A DNA stretch of 45,335 nt from assembly GCA_041623915.1 (NCBI GenBank), contig JBFJWB010000002.1, positions 1 to 45,335 of the forward strand. The letters are read 5' to 3'. Positions 2,273-28,828 of this stretch are shown piece by piece. The position numbers were made by a program, and so were the translations under genes. The notes under the pieces were generated by a model, which was given only the letters and a program-made list of their open reading frames with translations, did not search any database and was not told where the DNA came from. The first letter of the stretch is position 1. Each line of letters starts with the position of its first letter. The DNA is from Minisyncoccia bacterium. Lineage in GTDB: Bacteria > Patescibacteriota > Minisyncoccia > Phycocordibacterales > Phycocordibacteraceae.

Positions 2273-4131
2273 ATTATATATATTCCGCAATGATTGTTCG
2301 TTTTGCTGTCAGCAGGTACTGGCGCAAATGTACCGTCCGGATAATATATCGTTTCATAATAGTATGGAAGGCTAGGTGTTGGCTCAACAGCGTCCGGTCC
2401 ATTAGTAAAACAACATAACTGTATTGTTGTAGACGCGCTTTTGTTTATAAAATCAGCTTGATCATAAAGTGTCCCGCCAAAAATATTATTAATTTCTCCT
2501 GGGGGTCTAAGGTTCGCACCGCCGAAAGGTTCCGCTTGAGACTTCATGTTCGTGACGGCACTTATTTGCGGAGGTAATGATATAAGTTTCTGAACGTCAG
2601 ATATGACTCTCCTCTCAATGTCAATATCATCAATATGCGTCTCTTGAAGCAAGTTTTCTGCGCTAGGCAATGTATCAATACCTACACCAAATACTTTGTT
2701 AGGCGCAATCTGCATATGAGACAATATATCTATACCAAAAGATCTTGAGACATCTATCTCAGCTTGAGCGTCGGTATAGTCATTAAGGATCGGCTGAATA
2801 ATCTTTGTAAGTGTAGCGCTTGCTGAGTCAGTGCCGTTACTTCCGTCACGAACAGTTACCGATGTAGCTTGAGGTAGATCGTTTATAAATGTGGTATCTA
2901 GATTTATAGTGCATGAACCATGCACAGAAGGATTAGGATTTTTACTTTTTGGCGTGTTATTTGGCCCAGCATCTACTCGCCCCTGAGTAATAACGTAACC
3001 ACGACCAAAAGCATCTTTAAGTGTGTTTAGATTATCTGACGCGTCGCTCGCGATCGTGTTAATTGTCTTCCAGCTTGTCTCATAAGTTTTTATATTCTCA
3101 GCAACATCAAGAAGAAGATTAATGACTGCCTCAAATCCACCAGAAGAATCGAACTCATAGGCAGAATTGACTTCGCCAACTGCAGCGACTCCACCAGAAC
3201 CATTCCCTCCTAATACATCTGTAACGAAACCAAGTGCAGCATTTAGAAGAGTCTCACTAATTTCATCAGCATTAACAATACGATCTACATTTGCACCCAA
3301 TACTTTTGATAACTGTGCTTGAATTACAATCCCCGGAGTTTGTACATTAGCAAAAGTACCATCTGATTTGATACAAGGATCAGAGTCTCCTCCGTCGCAA
3401 TTTGGCAAAAATCCATTACCAAACCCAAGAAGGCTTAATCGTGCATTTTCTGAGCTAGAGACTACATTTGCAAGTGTATTACGGGACTCTTGGTACTGAA
3501 GGTATGGATTGTTGTTTGGTTTAGTGGTGAGCGAAAACCACTGACTCCACCCGCCACGAGTGAAGTCCCCATCAAGAAATGCATCAACATCTTCAGGCGG
3601 TGTCTCATCGTATAGTGTGCATCGATTTCTTGCGAGTAATCCACCAAGACTTGTGCTCTGATCATAAGTTTCATTAAGAGCGTCAGCAATACCAGATGCA
3701 AATGGAGAAAAAGAAAATGATGAATTTACGTCCGTAAGTAAATTAATATAAGCATCTCTCTGAGTATCTCCTAACTTGCGAAGATGATTCGCTAAATCTC
3801 CGACGAATTGTGGTTCACCTGATACATTGCCGTTTACAAGTCCAAGAATAGAACTCGTCATTTTGTCTACTTGGTCTTGAGCAAGTTTCCATGCAAGACC
3901 ATCTAAAACAAGCTCTTTGAAAACAAAAGAGCTAGTAGCCTCAGTACTTATTGCTCCGTACTCTCCGCTAATTCTGTTCTCTATACTGTTTAGTATGTGT
4001 GTTGCGGCATTACCAACATCAACGACAGGAAGCCCGTGAGCTCGTTGTGGCACTATAAGAGAAGATACAGGAGCGATAATTATCAACCCAAATATAAGAG
4101 TGATGAGGCGCAATTGTGGAGATGGTGTCAT
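2269..4131 (-). CDS. secreted protein of unknown function (signal peptide; N-terminal VVDVGNAATHILNSIE motif reminiscent of TrbJ/VirB5)
   Basis: 620-aa ORF. Hydrophobic N-terminus LITLIFGLIIIAPVSS. ATGA overlap with the upstream gene at 4128-4131. No catalytic motif recognised. Confidence 0.7.
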   Translation of the reverse strand: MTPSPQLRLITLIFGLIIIAPVSSLIVPQRAHGLPVVDVGNAATHILNSIENRISGEYGAISTEATSSFVFKELVLDGLAWKLAQDQVDKMTSSILGLVNGNVSGEPQFVGDLANHLRKLGDTQRDAYINLLTDVNSSFSFSPFASGIADALNETYDQSTSLGGLLARNRCTLYDETPPEDVDAFLDGDFTRGGWSQWFSLTTKPNNNPYLQYQESRNTLANVVSSSENARLSLLGFGNGFLPNCDGGDSDPCIKSDGTFANVQTPGIVIQAQLSKVLGANVDRIVNADEISETLLNAALGFVTDVLGGNGSGGVAAVGEVNSAYEFDSSGGFEAVINLLLDVAENIKTYETSWKTINTIASDASDNLNTLKDAFGRGYVITQGRVDAGPNNTPKSKNPNPSVHGSCTINLDTTFINDLPQATSVTVRDGSNGTDSASATLTKIIQPILNDYTDAQAEIDVSRSFGIDILSHMQIAPNKVFGVGIDTLPSAENLLQETHIDDIDIERRVISDVQKLISLPPQISAVTNMKSQAEPFGGANLRPPGEINNIFGGTLYDQADFINKSASTTIQLCCFTNGPDAVEPTPSLPYYYETIYYPDGTFAPVPADSKTNNHCGIYII

Positions 4132-19895: not shown

Positions 19896-19924
19896 TTGAC
19901 AAACATTACTAAATGGTGTAGTAT
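19896..19924 (+). promoter_or_regulatory. sigma70-like promoter TTGACA-17-TAGTAT
   Basis: TTGACA at 19896-19901, 17-nt spacer, TAGTAT at 19919-19924. Confidence 0.55.
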
Positions 19925-20022
19925 TACATACGGAGTTTTCGGCTCAGGAAAGTAAGTATTAGAGCCGAGAAAATCGGGGAAGTGGACTCGCCCAATCTCG
20001 TCCACATTTGAGGGGAAATAAA

Positions 20023-20103
20023 ATGGCGTATTACGTGGATCCGAATGGCCTCATTTGGTTCTCATGGGAGGATTACTTGAAAGCCTTGAAAGGCTACAAG
20101 TAA
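20023..20103 (+). CDS. 26-aa aromatic-rich micro-ORF (MAYYVDPNGLIWFSWEDYLKALKGYK)
   Basis: SD-like gagggg at 20010-15, 7 nt before the ATG. About 90-nt leader with two hairpins (19939-68, 19982-20005). Its own terminator follows. Confidence 0.4.
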   Translation: MAYYVDPNGLIWFSWEDYLKALKGYK

Positions 20104-20113
20104 AACAATTCGC

Positions 20114-20149
20114 AAAAGACGGCACTGCAGTGAGTGTCGTCTTTATTTT
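20114..20149 (+). terminator. rho-independent terminator of the micro-ORF unit
   Basis: agacggcact-gcagtg-agtgtcgtct (10 bp, one G.U pair), followed by tttatttta. Confidence 0.7.
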
Positions 20150-20160
20150 ATATACAAACG

Positions 20161-20190
20161 AAAATAGCCACCTTTTCGGGTGGCTATTTT
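20161..20190. terminator. bidirectional terminator downstream of the orphan hup 3' fragment
   Basis: aaaatagccacc-ttttcg-ggtggctatttt. Confidence 0.7.
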
Positions 20191-20208
20191 CGTGAAAGAC
20201 GCACTGAT

Positions 20209-20305
20209 TATTTAACTGCGTCCTTGAGTGCTTTTGCGGCGCGGAACTTAGGAGTTCGTGTAGCAGCAATCTGAATAGTCTCACCAGTACGAGGGTTACG
20301 TCCTT
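20209..20305 (-). pseudogene. orphan 3' fragment of hup (last 31 codons); left copy of the 97-bp direct repeat
   Basis: 97/97 identical to 23114-23210. Embedded in the chimeric ORF 20208..20411, whose N-terminal 36 aa show no HU similarity. Confidence 0.85.
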
Positions 20306-20499
20306 TTGGCATGTGACTTATGAGAAATATTCTCACGAGGCCGTCTCGGCTCTGTTTCTTGATGGTGTACTCAAATGAACTTATGGAACGCCCGAACAAT
20401 CGCAAATCCATAGTGTGTTAGCAAGAAGGTTAATGTGTCATTGTGACGGAATGACGCGTCACATCAAGTGAAGAGATTGTGATAGAGGAGCTTCCCTAA

Positions 20500-21306
20500 T
20501 CAGATATTCTCTAGCTTTTTGCCACCTGCCCACAACAATTCAAAGATTGCGCTCATGGTTTGTCGTATCTCTATATTTTCAATAATAGTAGTAATCATGG
20601 GTTTTTTGAATGACGTGAGCGCTATCTTGTTTGCATAAATAATAATTTGCGCGGGGAGTGTGAATGTGTCGTCAGGATATACGCGTCGCTCAGTCAGGCG
20701 AGATCGATCGCGTTTAATGATTTCCGTATGAGAAAGAGTCTTGGCGCCTGTCTTTGGGAACGGGCCAATAATACGTGTATGGATACCGAGCGTTACTTGT
20801 TGTTGTATTTGATTCGACAAAAGCGTTAGTTGGTCTGGCTCAACATCATCAATGGCGGAACGAATTAGGTTTATATCCATTTTCTCATGCAGTATATCTT
20901 TATAAAGGTCAGTAAGGCTTGCTGTTCCCTGTAGGATACGTACTCCGGGTATTTGAGATGATGCAGTGTAGTCAGAGATAAGAGAGCCCATGACCCCTTG
21001 AATTGTGCTCTTTGAAATCTCCGCGCGCTCGAGTTGTTTACGTGCTAGCTCTTGAATAGCAAATGGATGGGTAGGTACAAATTGAGCTGGTTTACCAGGA
21101 AGCTCCTCTTTTGATACAAGGTTAGCGTCTATAAGACCTTCAAGGATTTTGTATATATAGGGGCGAGAAAGTTCAGTGATTTTAGCAAGGCGCCCAGCTT
21201 GCATGGCCCCCTTTCGGATAAGGGGCTCATACACAAGGACCTGTTCTTTGGTAAGCCCGGCCGCAGAAAGTGCTTGAAAATACAATGTGTCAATTTTTGC
21301 TGTCAT
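20500..21306 (-). CDS. TrmB-family winged-helix transcriptional regulator
   Basis: N-terminus LSAAGLTKEQVLVYEPLIRKGAMQAGRLAKITELSRPYIYKILEGLIDANLV is the TrmB-type wHTH pattern. 268 aa. GC is host-like. Confidence 0.7.
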   Translation of the reverse strand: MTAKIDTLYFQALSAAGLTKEQVLVYEPLIRKGAMQAGRLAKITELSRPYIYKILEGLIDANLVSKEELPGKPAQFVPTHPFAIQELARKQLERAEISKSTIQGVMGSLISDYTASSQIPGVRILQGTASLTDLYKDILHEKMDINLIRSAIDDVEPDQLTLLSNQIQQQVTLGIHTRIIGPFPKTGAKTLSHTEIIKRDRSRLTERRVYPDDTFTLPAQIIIYANKIALTSFKKPMITTIIENIEIRQTMSAIFELLWAGGKKLENI

Positions 21307-21408
21307 AAAATAGTTTACATTTTTAAGCTATAGTGAAAATATGCCCATTTCTATTCATTTTTTAGCATACAAAAGCCACAAATTAGTGTCAATAGATAAT
21401 ACCAAGTA

Positions 21409-21436
21409 TTGACTCTTACATAAAACCTGCTATGAT
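21409..21436 (+). promoter_or_regulatory. promoter TTGACT-16-TGcTATGAT (extended -10)
   Basis: Sits 35 nt upstream of the ATG at 21472. SD aagggag at 21458-64. Confidence 0.6.
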
Positions 21437-21471
21437 TAGTCTCAGACTCAGTTCAAAAAGGGAGTAGTACC

Positions 21472-21811
21472 ATGAAATATTTTGGCTTTGCGTTGGCGGA
21501 CTCGATGTTCGTCGGGGAGTGTGTTATCGTCCGCCGTAATCTTACGGTGGACGAGGTAAAGCTGGCGGTTCAGGAGGGTGTCGAGCCCTGTCTGAACCCG
21601 TCGCACCAGGCAACCATCAATGCCATGCGTTCGCGCTATGGCATTGATGTGGCGATCCCAGACGCTCCCCCCCCGGGTGTGTCTGGGTCACGGTGACTCG
21701 CTCATAGTTATGGGAGTCCGCGGCTTACCGCGGCTTACAAAAAGCCACGAATACAGCGATGAAGAGATCGCGGGAGCGACCTTCACATTCTCTCTGTACT
21801 CGGTCTCCTGA
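21472..21811 (+). pseudogene. DUF1874-like (STIV B116 / AcrIII-1 ring-nuclease family) gene interrupted by a frameshift in a C8 run
   Basis: ORFs 21472..21696 and 21620..21811 are in frames differing by +1. Removing one C from the run at 21667-21674 gives one 112-aa protein, ...CLNPSHQATINAMRSRYGIDVAIPDAPPRVCLGHGDSLIVMGVRGLPRLTKSHEYSDEEIAGATFTFSLYSVS. This follows the DUF1874 pattern (conserved His, GD-LIV strand, EE...F-F C-terminus). Confidence 0.6.
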
Positions 21812-21923
21812 GGTTAGCCTAGTCGGTGCCAGCCTGCCCGACGAAAAACCGCATATCACGGCACTCCATCAGTGAGTGAATCTGGCGCGGAACAGAAATA
21901 AAAGGTGAAACTGTTCCATATGT

Positions 21924-21985
21924 GGAAGTTTACTTCCCCTATCTATTGAGCGCTTAAACAAATGTTTGAGCTCTCATAGATACTT
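21924..21985 (+). repeat. 62-bp double-palindrome repeat, copy 1
   Basis: 60/62 identical to 22997-23058. Lies 31 nt upstream of the ATG at 22017. Confidence 0.85.
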
Positions 21986-22016
21986 TGTTCTTTTGCATTA
22001 AATAAAAGGAAAAAAA

Positions 22017-22712
22017 ATGAAAGAATTTTCTTTCAGTAGAAGGGGGCAGCGGCAGAGCATTCTGTTAGTTGACGTTTTTCGTATTGTGGGTGGAGAGCGA
22101 GTCCCGCTCGTCTACGATTCCATCCCGACAGAGGCTTTCTTCCCTGTTGTTTTCATCATCGGGCGCAATGTTAACAGAGCTCGCGCCCGAGCCGAGGATT
22201 TTATTAGCAAAAATCCTAGTTTTTCAGGAGGAGTCCTCTATGAGGACGATGGTTCGCTGTCATGTGGAGACAGCGCAACTCTCCTGCTCGTCAACCTCCC
22301 TGAAGTGGGGATGGTTGACGAGCCTCGTGTGATGAAAGCTAAGGCCGCAAAGACGGCCAAACAGCTTGCCGAGCGTGAGGAACAACTCAGGAAAAGTATA
22401 ATAGCCGGGCTCTCAGGACGATGGTTGTTAAACGCCCTGAGGGATGACAAGCACCCCTTCGTGCTGCTTATCGATCTGGTGGTCGGCTGCTCCACGGGCA
22501 CCATCTCGTGGAATACCTTACGTTCGGAAGAACGTAAGGTCGTAATTCAGCTTACTGCCCTAAACCAAAAGCTCGGGAAAGCATACATAGCCCTCTACTA
22601 TGGAAGCCCAGAGCTGCAGGAAGAACTGCGCAAGAACTTTCTTGCGGTGAAAGAGGAGGTGATAATGGCGGCAGCTGAAATTTCTTCTAACATAAAAACA
22701 AAGGAGAGTTAA
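22017..22712 (+). CDS. hypothetical protein (231 aa), high-GC orphan
   Basis: ATG preceded by aaaagga. Two-domain layout with a K/A-rich linker (KAKAAKTAKQLAEREEQLRK). No motif recognised. Confidence 0.6.
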   Translation: MKEFSFSRRGQRQSILLVDVFRIVGGERVPLVYDSIPTEAFFPVVFIIGRNVNRARARAEDFISKNPSFSGGVLYEDDGSLSCGDSATLLLVNLPEVGMVDEPRVMKAKAAKTAKQLAEREEQLRKSIIAGLSGRWLLNALRDDKHPFVLLIDLVVGCSTGTISWNTLRSEERKVVIQLTALNQKLGKAYIALYYGSPELQEELRKNFLAVKEEVIMAAAEISSNIKTKES

Positions 22713-22714
22713 GA

Positions 22715-22846
22715 ATGGACAAGAAAATGTCTAGGAGGACCAAGCATGGTGGGAAGACAGAACGGTGGGATACCCACCGTAACCTGAAGGTTGCGCGCAA
22801 GCGCAACCGGAAGAACGCACGTCGGATCGCCATTCTGGAGGGGTAA
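22715..22846 (+). CDS. 43-aa highly basic peptide (MDKKMSRRTKHGGKTERWDTHRNLKVARKRNRKNARRIAILEG)
   Basis: SD aaggag at 22701-06 inside the end of the upstream ORF. The ATG is 2 nt after the upstream stop, which suggests translational coupling. Below the ORF-track cutoff. Confidence 0.4.
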   Translation: MDKKMSRRTKHGGKTERWDTHRNLKVARKRNRKNARRIAILEG

Positions 22847-22996
22847 CGTCCCGATTACATCTCCAGAGTCGTTCTCTGGTAGCTCGAGAAAACCAACGAG
22901 TATAAATGTATGGTCGAGAGTTTGTATCACGGGTAGACACTCTCGTTAATAAAAAATCACACACGTGAGCCATTGAGGAAGCAGAGCCTCGTCGGG

Positions 22997-23058
22997 GGAA
23001 GTTTACTTCCCCTATCTATTGAGTGCTTAAACAAATGTTTGAGCACTCATAGATACTT
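22997..23058 (+). repeat. 62-bp double-palindrome repeat, copy 2
   Basis: Contains GGGGAAGT-TT-ACTTCCCC (22995-23012) and TGAGTGCTTAAACAAATGTTTGAGCACTCA (23020-23049). Confidence 0.85.
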
Positions 23059-23067
23059 ATTTTTTAA

Positions 23068-23098
23068 CAAAAGACCGCCAGCTTGCTGGCGGTCTTTT
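23068..23098. terminator. bidirectional terminator just downstream of the intact hup
   Basis: aaaagaccgccag-cttg-ctggcggtctttt. Confidence 0.75.
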
Positions 23099-23112
23099 GC
23101 GATAAGTAACGG

Positions 23113-23385
23113 CTATTTAACTGCGTCCTTGAGTGCTTTTGCGGCGCGGAACTTAGGAGTTCGTGTAGCAGCAATCTGAATAGTCTCACCAGTACGAGGG
23201 TTACGTCCTTGACGCGCTGGGCGTGCCTTTGTTGCGAAGATACCTAACCCTGCGATGGATACTTCCTCTCCTTGAGAAAGTGCCATAGTTACGTTCTCAA
23301 TAATTGTTTCAACAGCGCGCTCTGCGTCGGCCTTAGTCGAACCGAGCGTGTCTTGAACCTTGCTCACAATGTCTGCTTTGTTCAT
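23113..23385 (-). CDS. hup: HU-family DNA-binding protein
   Basis: MNKADIVSKVQ...[47 protein letters not shown] at 23385 is preferred over the extended ORF start at 23460. 90 aa. Confidence 0.92.
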   Translation of the reverse strand: MNKADIVSKVQDTLGSTKADAERAVETIIENVTMALSQGEEVSIAGLGIFATKARPARQGRNPRTGETIQIAATRTPKFRAAKALKDAVK

Positions 23386-27303: not shown

Positions 27304-28668
27304 TTACTTATCGTCTTTGTCTTTATCTCTACTTTCTGAAGCATCTGCGACTGTTTCATCAGAATCAGGCAACGCAGTAAGTTCTTCTTCTGCTGGAAGA
27401 GATGTTTTCTCTGGAGTGTCATCGTCAACAATTTCGTGCGATTCAGTTGGCATAATTCCTGCTTCCACAGACGGCTCTCCAGATGCAACCTCTTCAGGAG
27501 TGATATCAACTGATGTGCCATCGCTCTCTGCAATGTTTGAACCTCCTGCAGACACTATATCTATGTTCCATCCAGTCAATTTCGCTGCTAAGCGTACGTT
27601 CTGTCCACCGCGACCAATGGCTAGCGACTGCTCTTCCTCAGCAACAGTAACGGTCGCTCGACGCTCCTCATTGTTCATAATTACCTCAATCGGCTCCGCT
27701 GGAGAGAGTGCCTCTTTGATAAATTCTTCCGTATTCTCTGACCATTCAATTATATCTATGCGTTCTCCGCCAAGTTCACTCATTACCGTTGAAACACGTA
27801 CTCCTCGCTGGCCTACCAATGATCCTACTGGGTCAACATGTGGATCAAGCGAAAGTACTGCGATCTTAGTACGGCTACCTGCCTCACGTGCAATTGCTTT
27901 TATTTCAATGTTTCCAGCGGCAAGCTCTGGAGCTTCTGCTTCAAAAAGCTTAACCACAAACCTTGTATTTGCGCGAGATAAACGCAAGTATACGCCACGA
28001 AATCCCTCATCAACTGCCCATAACAAGGCACGAATACGCTCACCAGGACGGTAGCGCTCACCAGGAATTTGTTCCTCATATGGAATGATTCCAACAGCAC
28101 GTCCAAGATCTACAAAGATAGCACCACGCTCCATTCGCTGTACTACTCCACTAACAATGTCATCCTTCTTTTCGCCAAACTCTTTGAGCATGGATAGTTT
28201 TTCCGCCTCACGTACCTTCTGGATAACAACCTGCTTAGCTGTTTGTGCCGCAATTCGGCCGAAGTCGTCTTGTGGCTCAAGAGGGAACACAATTTCTTCA
28301 TTTAACGTAACATCACGCTTAATAAGTTTGGCATTTTCTATAAGCATGTGTTTTTCCGTATCAAAGCGTGGCAATTCGCCTTCAGCAAGTGCCTCCTCTT
28401 CATGATTTGGATGATGTACCTCTATAACCTCCTCACCTTCTTCCGGAAAACGAACCATGGATTCGTCCACGACAGTTTTTACTTGCTCAAATGAAACAGT
28501 GCCTGTATTGAGGTCAAGTTTCGCACGTACAACTTGTCCACGCTTACCGTATTCTTTTTTGTAAGCAGTGGCCATTGCCGTTTCAATAGCTGTAACCATT
28601 GTCTCGCGTGATATACCGCGGTCTTCAAATTCTTCGAGCACTAGGTTGATGGTTTTAAGGTCAATCAT
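27304..28668 (-). CDS. nusA: transcription termination/antitermination factor NusA with an acidic C-terminal tail
   Basis: N-terminus LEEFEDRGISRETMVTAIETAMATAYKK, S1 domain and KH repeats (GQRGVRV, IGRGGQNVRLA). Confidence 0.93.
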   Translation of the reverse strand: MIDLKTINLVLEEFEDRGISRETMVTAIETAMATAYKKEYGKRGQVVRAKLDLNTGTVSFEQVKTVVDESMVRFPEEGEEVIEVHHPNHEEEALAEGELPRFDTEKHMLIENAKLIKRDVTLNEEIVFPLEPQDDFGRIAAQTAKQVVIQKVREAEKLSMLKEFGEKKDDIVSGVVQRMERGAIFVDLGRAVGIIPYEEQIPGERYRPGERIRALLWAVDEGFRGVYLRLSRANTRFVVKLFEAEAPELAAGNIEIKAIAREAGSRTKIAVLSLDPHVDPVGSLVGQRGVRVSTVMSELGGERIDIIEWSENTEEFIKEALSPAEPIEVIMNNEERRATVTVAEEEQSLAIGRGGQNVRLAAKLTGWNIDIVSAGGSNIAESDGTSVDITPEEVASGEPSVEAGIMPTESHEIVDDDTPEKTSLPAEEELTALPDSDETVADASESRDKDKDDK

Positions 28669-28828
28669 ATTGGTTGTGTATGTAGCACTTTTATAAAGAA
28701 AGTCCGCAAGGCGGACATTTCAGATACTTTGAAGAATACCAGTATCTAGTGTGTGCGTCAATGTCTCCAAGTTTGTCCACGTTTCATATATGCCGAGAGA
28801 GCATGTAACACGCTATACTCTATATATT

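Follow-up and report, generated by a model that had tools for sequence, protein, structure and literature searches.

A repeated hup 3′ end flanks a small regulator–cargo unit at a variable locus of a Minisyncoccia bacterium

Gene-end elements, islands and cassettes

The locus described here is a 2.9-kb unit bracketed by two copies of the 3′ end of hup, the gene of the nucleoid protein HU, on contig JBFJWB010000002.1 of a Minisyncoccia bacterium (NCBI GenBank assembly GCA_041623915.1); the window that was analysed is the whole contig, 45,335 bp long. Several described systems come close to it. The cis-mobilizable elements (CIMEs) of Streptococcus thermophilus lie at the 3′ end of fda, with attachment (att) repeats at the gene end, contain no recombination or transfer genes and are probably moved only with help; their parent integrative and conjugative elements (ICEs) can be recognised in related strains, where the att site used is the same one. 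Integron cassettes, as well as the Xer-dependent dif modules and integrative mobile elements exploiting Xer (IMEX), are small cassettes, poor in promoters and with one to three genes, that have no recombinase of their own and are separated by structured repeats. Additive flexible genomic islands and minimal mobile elements are exchanged by transformation and homologous recombination, and the double crossover involved leaves no duplication of the flanking gene ends. In Escherichia coli K-12, the element e14 (and likewise phage 21) occupies the 3′ end of icd, which is kept intact by the end that the element supplies, with the orphan fragment icdC left behind and excision recombining both copies (PMC13626634). 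The tycheposon islands of Prochlorococcus are found in streamlined genomes, in which cargo collects at fixed hotspots, new insertions push the older ones inward and partial targets are scattered along the island (bioRxiv 10.1101/2020.12.28.424599).

The genomes of the Candidate Phyla Radiation (CPR), or Patescibacteria, are tiny and contain few mobile elements that can be recognised, and yet they differ from one another at fixed hotspots. The hup locus offers a clean and recent example of how cargo enters such a genome, the repeat being perfect, the target gene intact and the 2.9-kb unit complete.

The insertion scar at hup

The two copies of the repeat, referred to as R, are identical at all 97 of their positions and have sharp edges, with no similarity in the 40 nt outside either copy, and R is the longest repeat anywhere in the window. 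It comprises the last 31 codons of hup together with the TA of the stop codon, where the identity ends, the codon being TAG in the intact gene and TAA in the orphan. The intact gene (23113-23385, minus strand) encodes a 90-aa HU protein (Pfam PF00216, E 4e-31), and the orphan copy matches positions 59-90 of the HU profile only. All of this had been read from the letters in the original prediction, namely the perfect 97-bp repeat, its content of 31 codons and two stop-codon bases, and the division into a right copy that completes HU and a left copy that is an orphan, and every part of it was confirmed, the last by the coverage of the PF00216 profile. The insert between the copies measures 2,808 bp (20306-23113), and one unit, which includes a single R, measures 2,905 bp; a weak 6+4+6 palindrome can be seen within R by eye. 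The repeated hup end is, on strong grounds, a real recombinational insertion scar, and a chance origin is excluded. The geometry of the repeats also supports the view, put forward in the same prediction, that they behave like attL and attR, the insertion having entered the 3′ end of hup and brought a replacement end with it, such that hup stays intact and gains a new terminator.

The two different hairpin terminators that were predicted, one for each copy of R, both exist (t1 and t2 in Table 1). The terminator t1 is probably the original terminator of hup; it is also the sole minus-strand terminator behind the TrmB-like gene of the insert, the terminator scan having returned no other between 20499 and 20194. 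The sequence downstream of the intact and of the orphan hup end is not similar to that of any of 80 relatives (~78% rny identity), a divergence at which the comparison does not tell which terminator is native. The spacer that excision would leave contains, as a separate observation, a 31-aa open reading frame (ORF; 20008-20103, plus strand) that has its own promoter-like site (19896-19924) and terminator (20115-20144) as well as a weak PHROG match (E 0.046), and which is possibly a real small gene.

In the model that we favour, to which we assign a probability of roughly 0.45 and which is accordingly tentative, the unit is a Campbell-type element with a portable hup end, moved by the homologous recombination of the host in conjunction with natural DNA uptake. 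Read in the orientation of hup, it would consist of R, a bidirectional terminator, a cargo operon (p43, p231 and a DUF1874-like gene), a divergently oriented gene for a TrmBL2-like regulator and a 194-bp spacer. One copy of R would complete hup, with the displaced copy and the old hup terminator coming to sit behind the regulator. Recombination between the two copies would release a 2,905-bp circle, in which two divergent promoters would drive convergent transcripts into one bidirectional terminator that serves both, R being placed between the TrmB-like gene and that terminator. Recombination of the R of the circle with a chromosomal hup would then re-insert the unit, leaving hup undamaged. 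For integration the unit would thus have nothing other than its portable end of a conserved host gene, the enzyme not being encoded by the unit, and the DNA would enter via the presumed competence apparatus encoded on the same contig, on which candidates for ComEC, a ComM-like protein, PilB/PilC, a pseudopilin and RecJ were recognised by eye.

Table 1. Features of the unit and its borders in the window, in order of position
Feature	Position	Strand	Basis or remark
t1, intrinsic terminator behind the orphan hup fragment	20158..20193	-	terminator scan: 15-pair stem, then T tail
Orphan hup end, attR-like	20209..20305	-	97/97 to 23114-23210; HU profile 59-90
Spacer, 194 bp, from the TrmB-like stop codon to the orphan fragment	20306..20499	.	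not similar to hup or to any fetched locus
TrmBL2-like regulator, 268 aa: winged helix-turn-helix and C-terminal phospholipase D-like domain without catalytic His	20500..21306	-	PF01978; PDB profile; Foldseek
AT-rich divergent promoter region, GC 30%, containing the 10-mer TCAATAGATA	21307..21471	.	promoter-like sites 21364-21392(-) and 21409-21436(+), back to back
DUF1874-like gene with +1 frameshift in C8 (21667-21674)	21472..21811	+	homologues; family profile vs AFV3-109
D2a, 69-nt repeat: 14-nt and ~40-nt palindromes, then T-rich tail; the 231-aa ORF follows after 24 nt	21924..21992	+	
231-aa ORF (p231)	22017..22712	+	near-orphan
43-aa Arg/Lys-rich basic ORF (p43), 2 nt after the 231-aa ORF	22715..22846	+	ORF list
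D2b, second 69-nt copy, 93% identical to D2a	22997..23065	+	
t2, bidirectional terminator between cargo operon and intact hup	23068..23098	.	A-tract, 9-10-bp GC stem, T-tract; strong predicted hairpin
R copy completing intact hup, attL-like	23114..23210	-	end of hup 23113-23385

A perfect repeat of this kind can mislead an assembler, and it could be that an empty chromosomal site (hup, R and t1) and a separate 2,905-bp circle carrying R have been threaded together. The circle plus the empty site and the integrated form give one and the same de Bruijn graph, public assemblies contain unitigs of a related module that are bounded by repeats (L085 and L086, the L numbers designating the loci and contigs compared), and no independent contig confirms the arrangement. 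We nevertheless regard such mis-threading as the least probable of the explanations considered here. All four junction sequences must exist in the reads, so that an element carrying a hup end is real either way; the length of 97 follows from the sequences and not from k; genes for Rep or partition, by which a free replicon could be maintained, are missing from the insert; and integrated equivalents with diverged repeats are found in relatives. In particular, the joins between spacer and R and between R and t2 must exist in the reads, and a molecule that joins the hup end to the module is therefore real, which leaves a circle plus an empty site as the only realistic alternative to the assembled form, with the same biology. 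The suspicion of an assembly chimera that was voiced in the original prediction, based on the closeness of 97 nt to common k-mer sizes, is hence set aside as regards the repeat length and the junctions, and retains its force only in that the integrated form and the circle plus empty site share one graph. The two Logan contigs L085 and L086 (2.73 kb) were also considered as circles of the module found in L084, and were rejected; their end overlaps of 12 and 17 nt equal 2(k-1)-|R| for k=31, which identifies them as unitigs.

A hypervariable interval and a relocating module

RNase Y, HU and ClpP place the contig within the Patescibacteria/Paceibacteria (Kaiserbacteria-like), with a best RNase Y identity of ~78-82%. 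Across the 80 related Paceibacteria loci that form the comparison set, the order clpP, rny, hup, a variable interval, tRNA-Gly(TCC) and a gene for a trypsin-like protease is conserved, and the distance from hup to tRNA-Gly, taken from 33 loci, ranges from 223 to 8,822 bp, that of the window being 3,311 bp. The interval between hup and tRNA-Gly(TCC) is thus a hypervariable hotspot of the Paceibacteria. If one 2,905-bp unit is subtracted, the distance in the window falls to ~406 bp, which is like that of the shortest (“empty”) relatives, at 223-565 bp. The spacer between rny and hup, usually 90-300 bp, reaches 4-5 kb in some loci. Repeats of 72 nt in L019, L043 and L064 were tried as duplicated tRNA att sites and rejected, ARAGORN having identified them as the paralogues tRNA-Gly(TCC) and tRNA-Gly(GCC).

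The TrmB-like gene and its divergent DUF1874-like partner are absent from the hup interval in most of the 80 relatives. In L087, whose rny is 58% identical, hup is followed by genes for a radical SAM protein, a SAVED protein, two ORFs and a DUF1874-like protein, convergent to hup, and then by a divergent TrmB-like gene; position and orientation are as in the window, the cargo is another one, and the hup end is not repeated. The same interval of L084 contains a TrmB orthologue (49% identical) whose divergent partner is a different one (PF27247); here, too, the hup end is not repeated, and the unit is bracketed by a 48-nt terminator repeat that is 98% identical. In the comparison of hup loci in related genomes that the original prediction had proposed, short, empty-like intervals do exist, and the module recurs behind hup in the distant L087. 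In L014 the TrmB/DUF1874 pair is found elsewhere, in the gap between pilB and nusA, which in the window measures only 82 bp (nusA ending at 28668, pilB starting at 28751); in L081 it is upstream of nusA, and the metagenome loci L102-L104 and L128 have the pair as well. Judged by these sequence comparisons, the TrmB/DUF1874 module is accessory and relocates between hotspots, with exchangeable cargo.

One of these loci, L081, also contains a candidate type III hammerhead (3897-3951, minus strand; RF00008, 42.6 bits against a gathering threshold of 48.5, E 8.4e-7) with the canonical CUGAUGA...GAAA core, just downstream of the DUF1874-like gene. An inverted copy, 83% identical and 3.4 kb away (L081:7351-7402, plus strand), was not called by cmscan; the pair flanks the divergent DUF1874–TrmB module.

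The composition of the insert is uneven. The original prediction gave sampled lines of the cassette a GC content of 58-62%; the cassette does not have this content throughout, being at 50-58% per gene, with 100-nt windows of up to 63%, as compared with 43% for the whole window. The in-frame GC content at third codon positions (GC3) is 0.38 in the TrmB-like gene and 0.32 in R, the neighbouring core genes being at 0.30-0.35, and rises to 0.62-0.67 in the DUF1874-like gene, 0.55 in the 231-aa ORF and 0.70 in the 43-aa ORF. The possibility that R is foreign by its GC3 was rejected, the in-frame value of 0.32 being host-like, and hup in relatives has no systematic difference in GC3 between its 5′ and 3′ parts. 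The insert is hence a mosaic, in which the TrmB-like gene and R are host-like and only 21472-22996 looks recently imported, with a GC-rich composition that fits related high-GC Paceibacteria. What had been called a foreign insert deserves the name in this stretch, but not in the TrmB-like gene and R, and TrmB modules are also present behind hup in L087 and L084, which makes this a module that recurs at the hotspot and not a single alien arrival. The host-like composition of the TrmB-like gene and R argues that this lineage is where the unit has been cycling. The contig as a whole, at 43% GC, also differs from its closest RNase Y relatives (77-82% identity), which are at 53-57%, a large shift within a shallow clade.

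These observations bear on an explanation that dispenses with mobility of the unit, in which the module would be an old resident of the interval between hup and tRNA-Gly, its cargo would have been swapped by homologous exchange with relatives, and the hup fragment would stem from a local duplication or another illegitimate event with no role in mobility. The TrmB-like modules in the same place and orientation in L084 and L087 without hup repeats speak for it, as do the host-like composition of the TrmB-like gene and R next to a cargo that alone is GC-rich, and the inner repeat D2, which shows cargo turnover within the module. We consider it quite improbable all the same: a perfect 97-bp repeat with 2.9 kb between its copies is prone to recombination and ought to be young, the edges of R coincide exactly with the ends of the whole module plus the terminator that serves hup, a fit that a random duplication does not predict, the module is missing here from most of the 80 relatives and is placed elsewhere in L014 and L081, and the same type of scar recurs with other genes.

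Orphan gene ends in relatives

The recurrence of the scar is seen in three relatives, L025, L005 and L014, in which orphan 3′ ends of rny (54-106 nt, 77-89% identity) lie between rny and hup. The orphan end in L025 (54 nt, 87% identical) is located behind a hicBA pair, and that in L014 has 60 nt and is 77% identical. In L005, three serial rny fragments separate small cassettes, one of which is a hicAB pair, and the last of the three (106 nt, 89% identical) lies immediately against the stop codon of a TrmB-like gene, an arrangement close to that of the window. In L081, the ends of two trmB-like genes (94 nt and 38 nt) are duplicated, at 91-92% identity, around inserts of 2.0 and 2.3 kb. All of the repeats in relatives end at the stop codon or a few nucleotides beyond it. 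The copies in each case have diverged, and for that reason these scars are not assembly artefacts. Orphan-end scars thus appear, from these alignments, to be recurrent in the clade.

The rny fragments, which derive from one target gene, have lengths of 54, 60, 66, 66 and 106 nt, and this variation argues against a single fixed crossover core. Some of them resemble the rny ends of other species more closely than the resident one, the L014 fragment being 77% identical to the resident rny as compared with 88% elsewhere, and the first L005 fragment 79% as compared with 89%, which suggests that the fragments, or one of the two ends, have travelled between lineages; the relatives, at ~80% DNA identity, are too distant to tell which rny copy derives from the host. 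As for what lies between them, the cassettes separated by rny ends (L005:11490-13200; L025:11506-12005; L014:11534-12819) are by eye mostly toxin-antitoxin- or defence-like, with a nucleotidyltransferase, hicAB/hicBA pairs and an ATPase-like protein with a small partner.

A more general proposal can be formulated for the group, in which Paceibacteria would shuffle cassettes without any element-borne recombinase, using portable 3′ ends of hup, rny and trmB-like genes as the homology address, with RecA-type Campbell insertion following uptake and with excision as a circle. We hold this generalization to be rather unlikely. In a bolder variant of it, the TrmBL2-like protein, with its degenerate phospholipase D (PLD)-like domain, may itself take part in the recombination, a thought prompted by the position of the TrmB-like gene adjoining the orphan end both in the window and in L005.

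The search for a recombinase

The screen of the insert ORFs of at least 30 aa for recombinase families, which the original prediction had proposed, was carried out, and none of the 34 ORFs matched a recombinase, transposase or Rep family at E<=0.01; comparison of the insert proteins with PHROGs and PADLOC did not reveal a recombinase either. In the relatives, tblastn with the sole tyrosine recombinase of their loci returned only conserved syntenic Xer-like orthologues, none of which is in the window, and when 134 larger ORFs of the variable intervals were compared with Pfam, three integrase matches were obtained, all at the Xer-like coordinates, with TrmB-like proteins accounting for 12 of the 134. 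No autonomous element that uses the same att site was present among the 80 related loci, in a screen that covered ORFs of ~245-487 aa.

Outside the Paceibacteria, in IMG/VR proviruses of Firmicutes isolates, which are unrelated hosts, hup is found at the provirus edge, directly followed by a convergent tyrosine integrase (L150:1-1507, L178:1-1412 and L199:1-1525); in the one provirus contig tested, the hup end gave a single exact match and was thus not duplicated. Literature searches for hup as an att site found nothing. The claim that the end of a nucleoid-protein gene is an unusual att target is therefore weakened by the integrases next to hup in Firmicutes, from which it follows that integration beside hup occurs in other phyla.

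In a different explanation, the unit would depend on an integrase and be mobilised in trans in the manner of a CIME or a satellite. The two copies of R would then be attL and attR for a site-specific recombinase of the tyrosine or serine type, whose gene would lie in another part of the genome or on a helper phage or element, and the unit would carry attP together with a replacement hup end. The geometry is identical to that of integration into a gene 3′ end with restoration of the target, as in e14 and icd (PMC13626634), the Firmicutes proviruses with a convergent tyrosine integrase beside hup indicate that hup ends are used by integrase-bearing elements, the serial rny ends of L005 resemble tandem accretion at one att site (compare the partial tRNAs in tycheposon islands), and the DUF1874-like gene is also borne by phages. 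On the other side of the balance stand the 34 insert ORFs and, by eye, the 45-kb contig without an integrase, the 134 larger ORFs of relatives, among which only housekeeping Xer-like and no island-type integrases were encountered, the differing lengths (54-106 nt) of the orphan rny ends for a single target, and the want of an autonomous relative with a hup end among the loci searched. On this evidence a recombinase acting in trans is somewhat unlikely, but comes close behind the favoured model as its main rival.

The Campbell-type model of a portable hup end has, in turn, several points to answer. Homologous recombination does not account for how the first hup fragment came to be joined to the unit, and repeats that end at or just after a stop codon have the look of integrase-type, target-restoring elements such as e14 in icd. 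The presence of the module behind hup in L087 and L084 without a hup repeat makes vertical residence with cargo turnover possible. An exact 28-mer of R had 0 matches in metagenome and viral collections, and neither an empty site nor a circle was found there; exact look-ups of HU, the 231-aa ORF and the TrmB-like protein in a contig index likewise returned no other record and no second copy of the locus. As far as enzymes are concerned, inspection of the 45-kb contig by eye showed no integrase, the remaining genome, in which one could be encoded, lying outside the comparison, and the screen of 134 ORFs covered proteins of ~245-487 aa, a range from which small serine recombinases would escape.

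If movement without a recombinase of its own holds true for the unit, it would represent a cheap route of gene flow that is suited to naturally competent, reduced genomes, and if the homology-addressed cassettes of the more general proposal are real, they would explain how hotspots are built in reduced genomes that are poor in transposases. If the unit is simply a decayed island of the integrase type, it would be ordinary.

The regulator

The N-terminal winged helix-turn-helix (wHTH) domain of the TrmB-like protein matches PF01978 (E 5e-12, beyond the curated cut-off), and a sequence profile matches TrmBL2 in the PDB (5bpd, E 1.3e-6, residues 22-185). The predicted structure, with a predicted local distance difference test score (pLDDT) of 82, aligns over its full length with 5bqt and 5bpd in Foldseek (E 4e-14 to 2e-13, ~270 columns). 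Its architecture is that of TrmBL2, an archaeal chromatin protein (PDB structures 5bpd and 5bqt), with a wHTH domain, a long helix and a PLD-like domain, and without the sugar-binding subdomain. The C-terminal domain resembles the NucT/Zucchini (PLD) fold (Foldseek, E ~1e-5), and in the family alignment this domain has an invariant K, TT and N. An active PLD nuclease was considered and rejected, as the fold is present but the sole invariant His of the family, H80, lies outside the domain. The protein is thus read, from alignment and model, as a putative DNA-binding regulator rather than a nuclease.

The 10-mer TCAATAGATA occurs in exactly three copies in the window, all of them inside the insert (21389-21398, 21940-21949 and 23013-23022). 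It comes from one arm of D2 and is found in both D2 copies as well as in the divergent promoter of the TrmB-like and DUF1874-like genes, and it may represent a candidate shared operator of the TrmBL2-like regulator.

The cargo and the inner repeat

The first cargo gene is spread over two overlapping ORFs, and dropping one C from its C8 tract yields a single protein of 112 aa. Homologues of this protein number 688; they have ~113 aa, are 70-75% identical to it and in many cases carry a precomputed PF08960 assignment. The frame-corrected protein itself had no PF08960 match against Pfam at E<=1. The DUF1874-type label given in the original prediction accordingly stands through the homologues but not through a Pfam match of the corrected protein. 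The family profile gives a weak match (E 0.057) to the DUF1874 structure AFV3-109 (2j6b), in which the invariant His of the family (SH.AT) aligns with GHQAT. DUF1874 we take to be the AcrIII-1/Crn2 ring-nuclease family. Intact homologues would need a C7 at the position of the tract, and no other large gene of the contig looks frameshifted, so that the gene is either a true pseudogene or one that is switched on and off by strand slippage in the C8. Due to this frameshift, the cargo operon would at present be off or decaying.

Copies of the protein occur more widely. It is 74% identical between the window and L087, above the value for housekeeping proteins (RNase Y, 58%), and phage-like contigs as well as 8 IMG/VR contigs, of 30-107 kb, carry copies at 60-72% identity (L091-L094 and L142-L149). 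It is a highly conserved small protein that moves horizontally. Beside hup in L087 (6001-9625), the DUF1874-like gene heads an operon with SAVED-domain and radical SAM proteins, and that operon, judging by its composition, may be a module for cyclic-oligonucleotide signalling that includes a ring nuclease. The cargo of the window may be viewed as a regulator-controlled operon headed by a ring-nuclease-like gene, with a presumable part in defence or counter-defence, and the combination of a DUF1874-like gene placed under a TrmBL2-like regulator and linked to SAVED in one relative hints at cyclic-oligonucleotide defence or counter-defence in CPR bacteria.

The second cargo gene, the 231-aa ORF, retrieved itself alone in a word-indexed search and four remote relatives among 1.84 billion representatives. 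It had no Pfam, PHROG or PADLOC match and was not in IMG/VR, and its model (pLDDT 79) matched no PDB fold at E<=0.001. The idea that it might be a hidden recombinase was rejected on the grounds that it has no family match and no PDB fold match and is absent from viral contigs. The 43-aa ORF had no family match in Pfam, PHROG or PADLOC.

The two cargo ORFs are bracketed by the D2 pair, which was not mentioned in the original prediction. D2 folds as a long imperfect palindrome, and two of the differences between D2a and D2b sit on one base pair of the long hairpin. A search of the insert region against Rfam at E<=1 gave only a tRNA that reached its family threshold. Structured direct repeats of 60-120 nt bracket the gene or genes directly 3′ of the DUF1874-like gene in four genomes, namely in the window (21924-21992 and 22997-23065), in L014 (5760-5826 and 6319-6386), in L081 (2961-3076 and 3775-3891) and in L102 (4807-4868 and 5239-5299), and the L014 and L081 repeats have the hairpin TTTCTTTCAGAG...TTTCTGAAAGGAA in common, with variable loops. 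By their arrangement, these repeats look like those of a cassette array with repeated leader or terminator elements.

Comparison with known systems

As in the case of e14 and icd, the unit of the window is situated in the 3′ end of a housekeeping gene, with the target restored and an orphan end at the far side. It differs from e14, which measures 15 kb, has its own integrase and is bordered by icd ends that differ at several positions, in that it measures only 2.9 kb, has no recombinase, is flanked by copies that are 100% identical and resides in a CPR host. The likeness to CIMEs and other decayed att-flanked islands consists in the att-type repeats around a unit free of recombinase genes; in contrast to CIMEs, no autonomous relative was found among the loci and viral contigs searched. 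The three serial rny ends in L005 recall the tycheposon islands, which, however, employ tyrosine or serine integrases at tRNA genes, whereas here the ends are those of protein genes (hup, rny and trmB-like genes) and no integrase of the elements was seen.

Integron cassettes and dif modules are called to mind by D2 and by the similar repeats behind the DUF1874-like genes of L014, L081 and L102. Unlike in integrons, there is no IntI (the contig having been inspected by eye and the insert screened), and D2 is devoid of the outer R″/R′ boxes of attC (RYYYAAC/GTTRRRY), its AAACA/TGTTT being at the centre of the palindrome and not at its ends. Unlike in dif modules, the outer repeat is a gene end and not a 28-bp recombinase site, and no dif-like site turned up, although none was specifically sought. 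Additive flexible islands have in common with the present locus a fixed interval beside a tRNA gene, cassettes that differ from genome to genome and competence-type genes, the last recognised by eye; they differ from it in that a 97-bp repeat requires a single-crossover (Campbell) or a site-specific event.

Taken as a member of the described classes, the unit fails both as an autonomous integrative element, since it has no recombinase, and as an integron cassette, since it has neither IntI nor attC boxes. What is known already is the att-type scar at a gene end, as in e14 and icd and in integrase-less, CIME-like islands. What is new are the end of a nucleoid-protein gene as the target, the very small size of the unit, the CPR host, the perfect repeats and the regulated cargo headed by a ring-nuclease-like gene.

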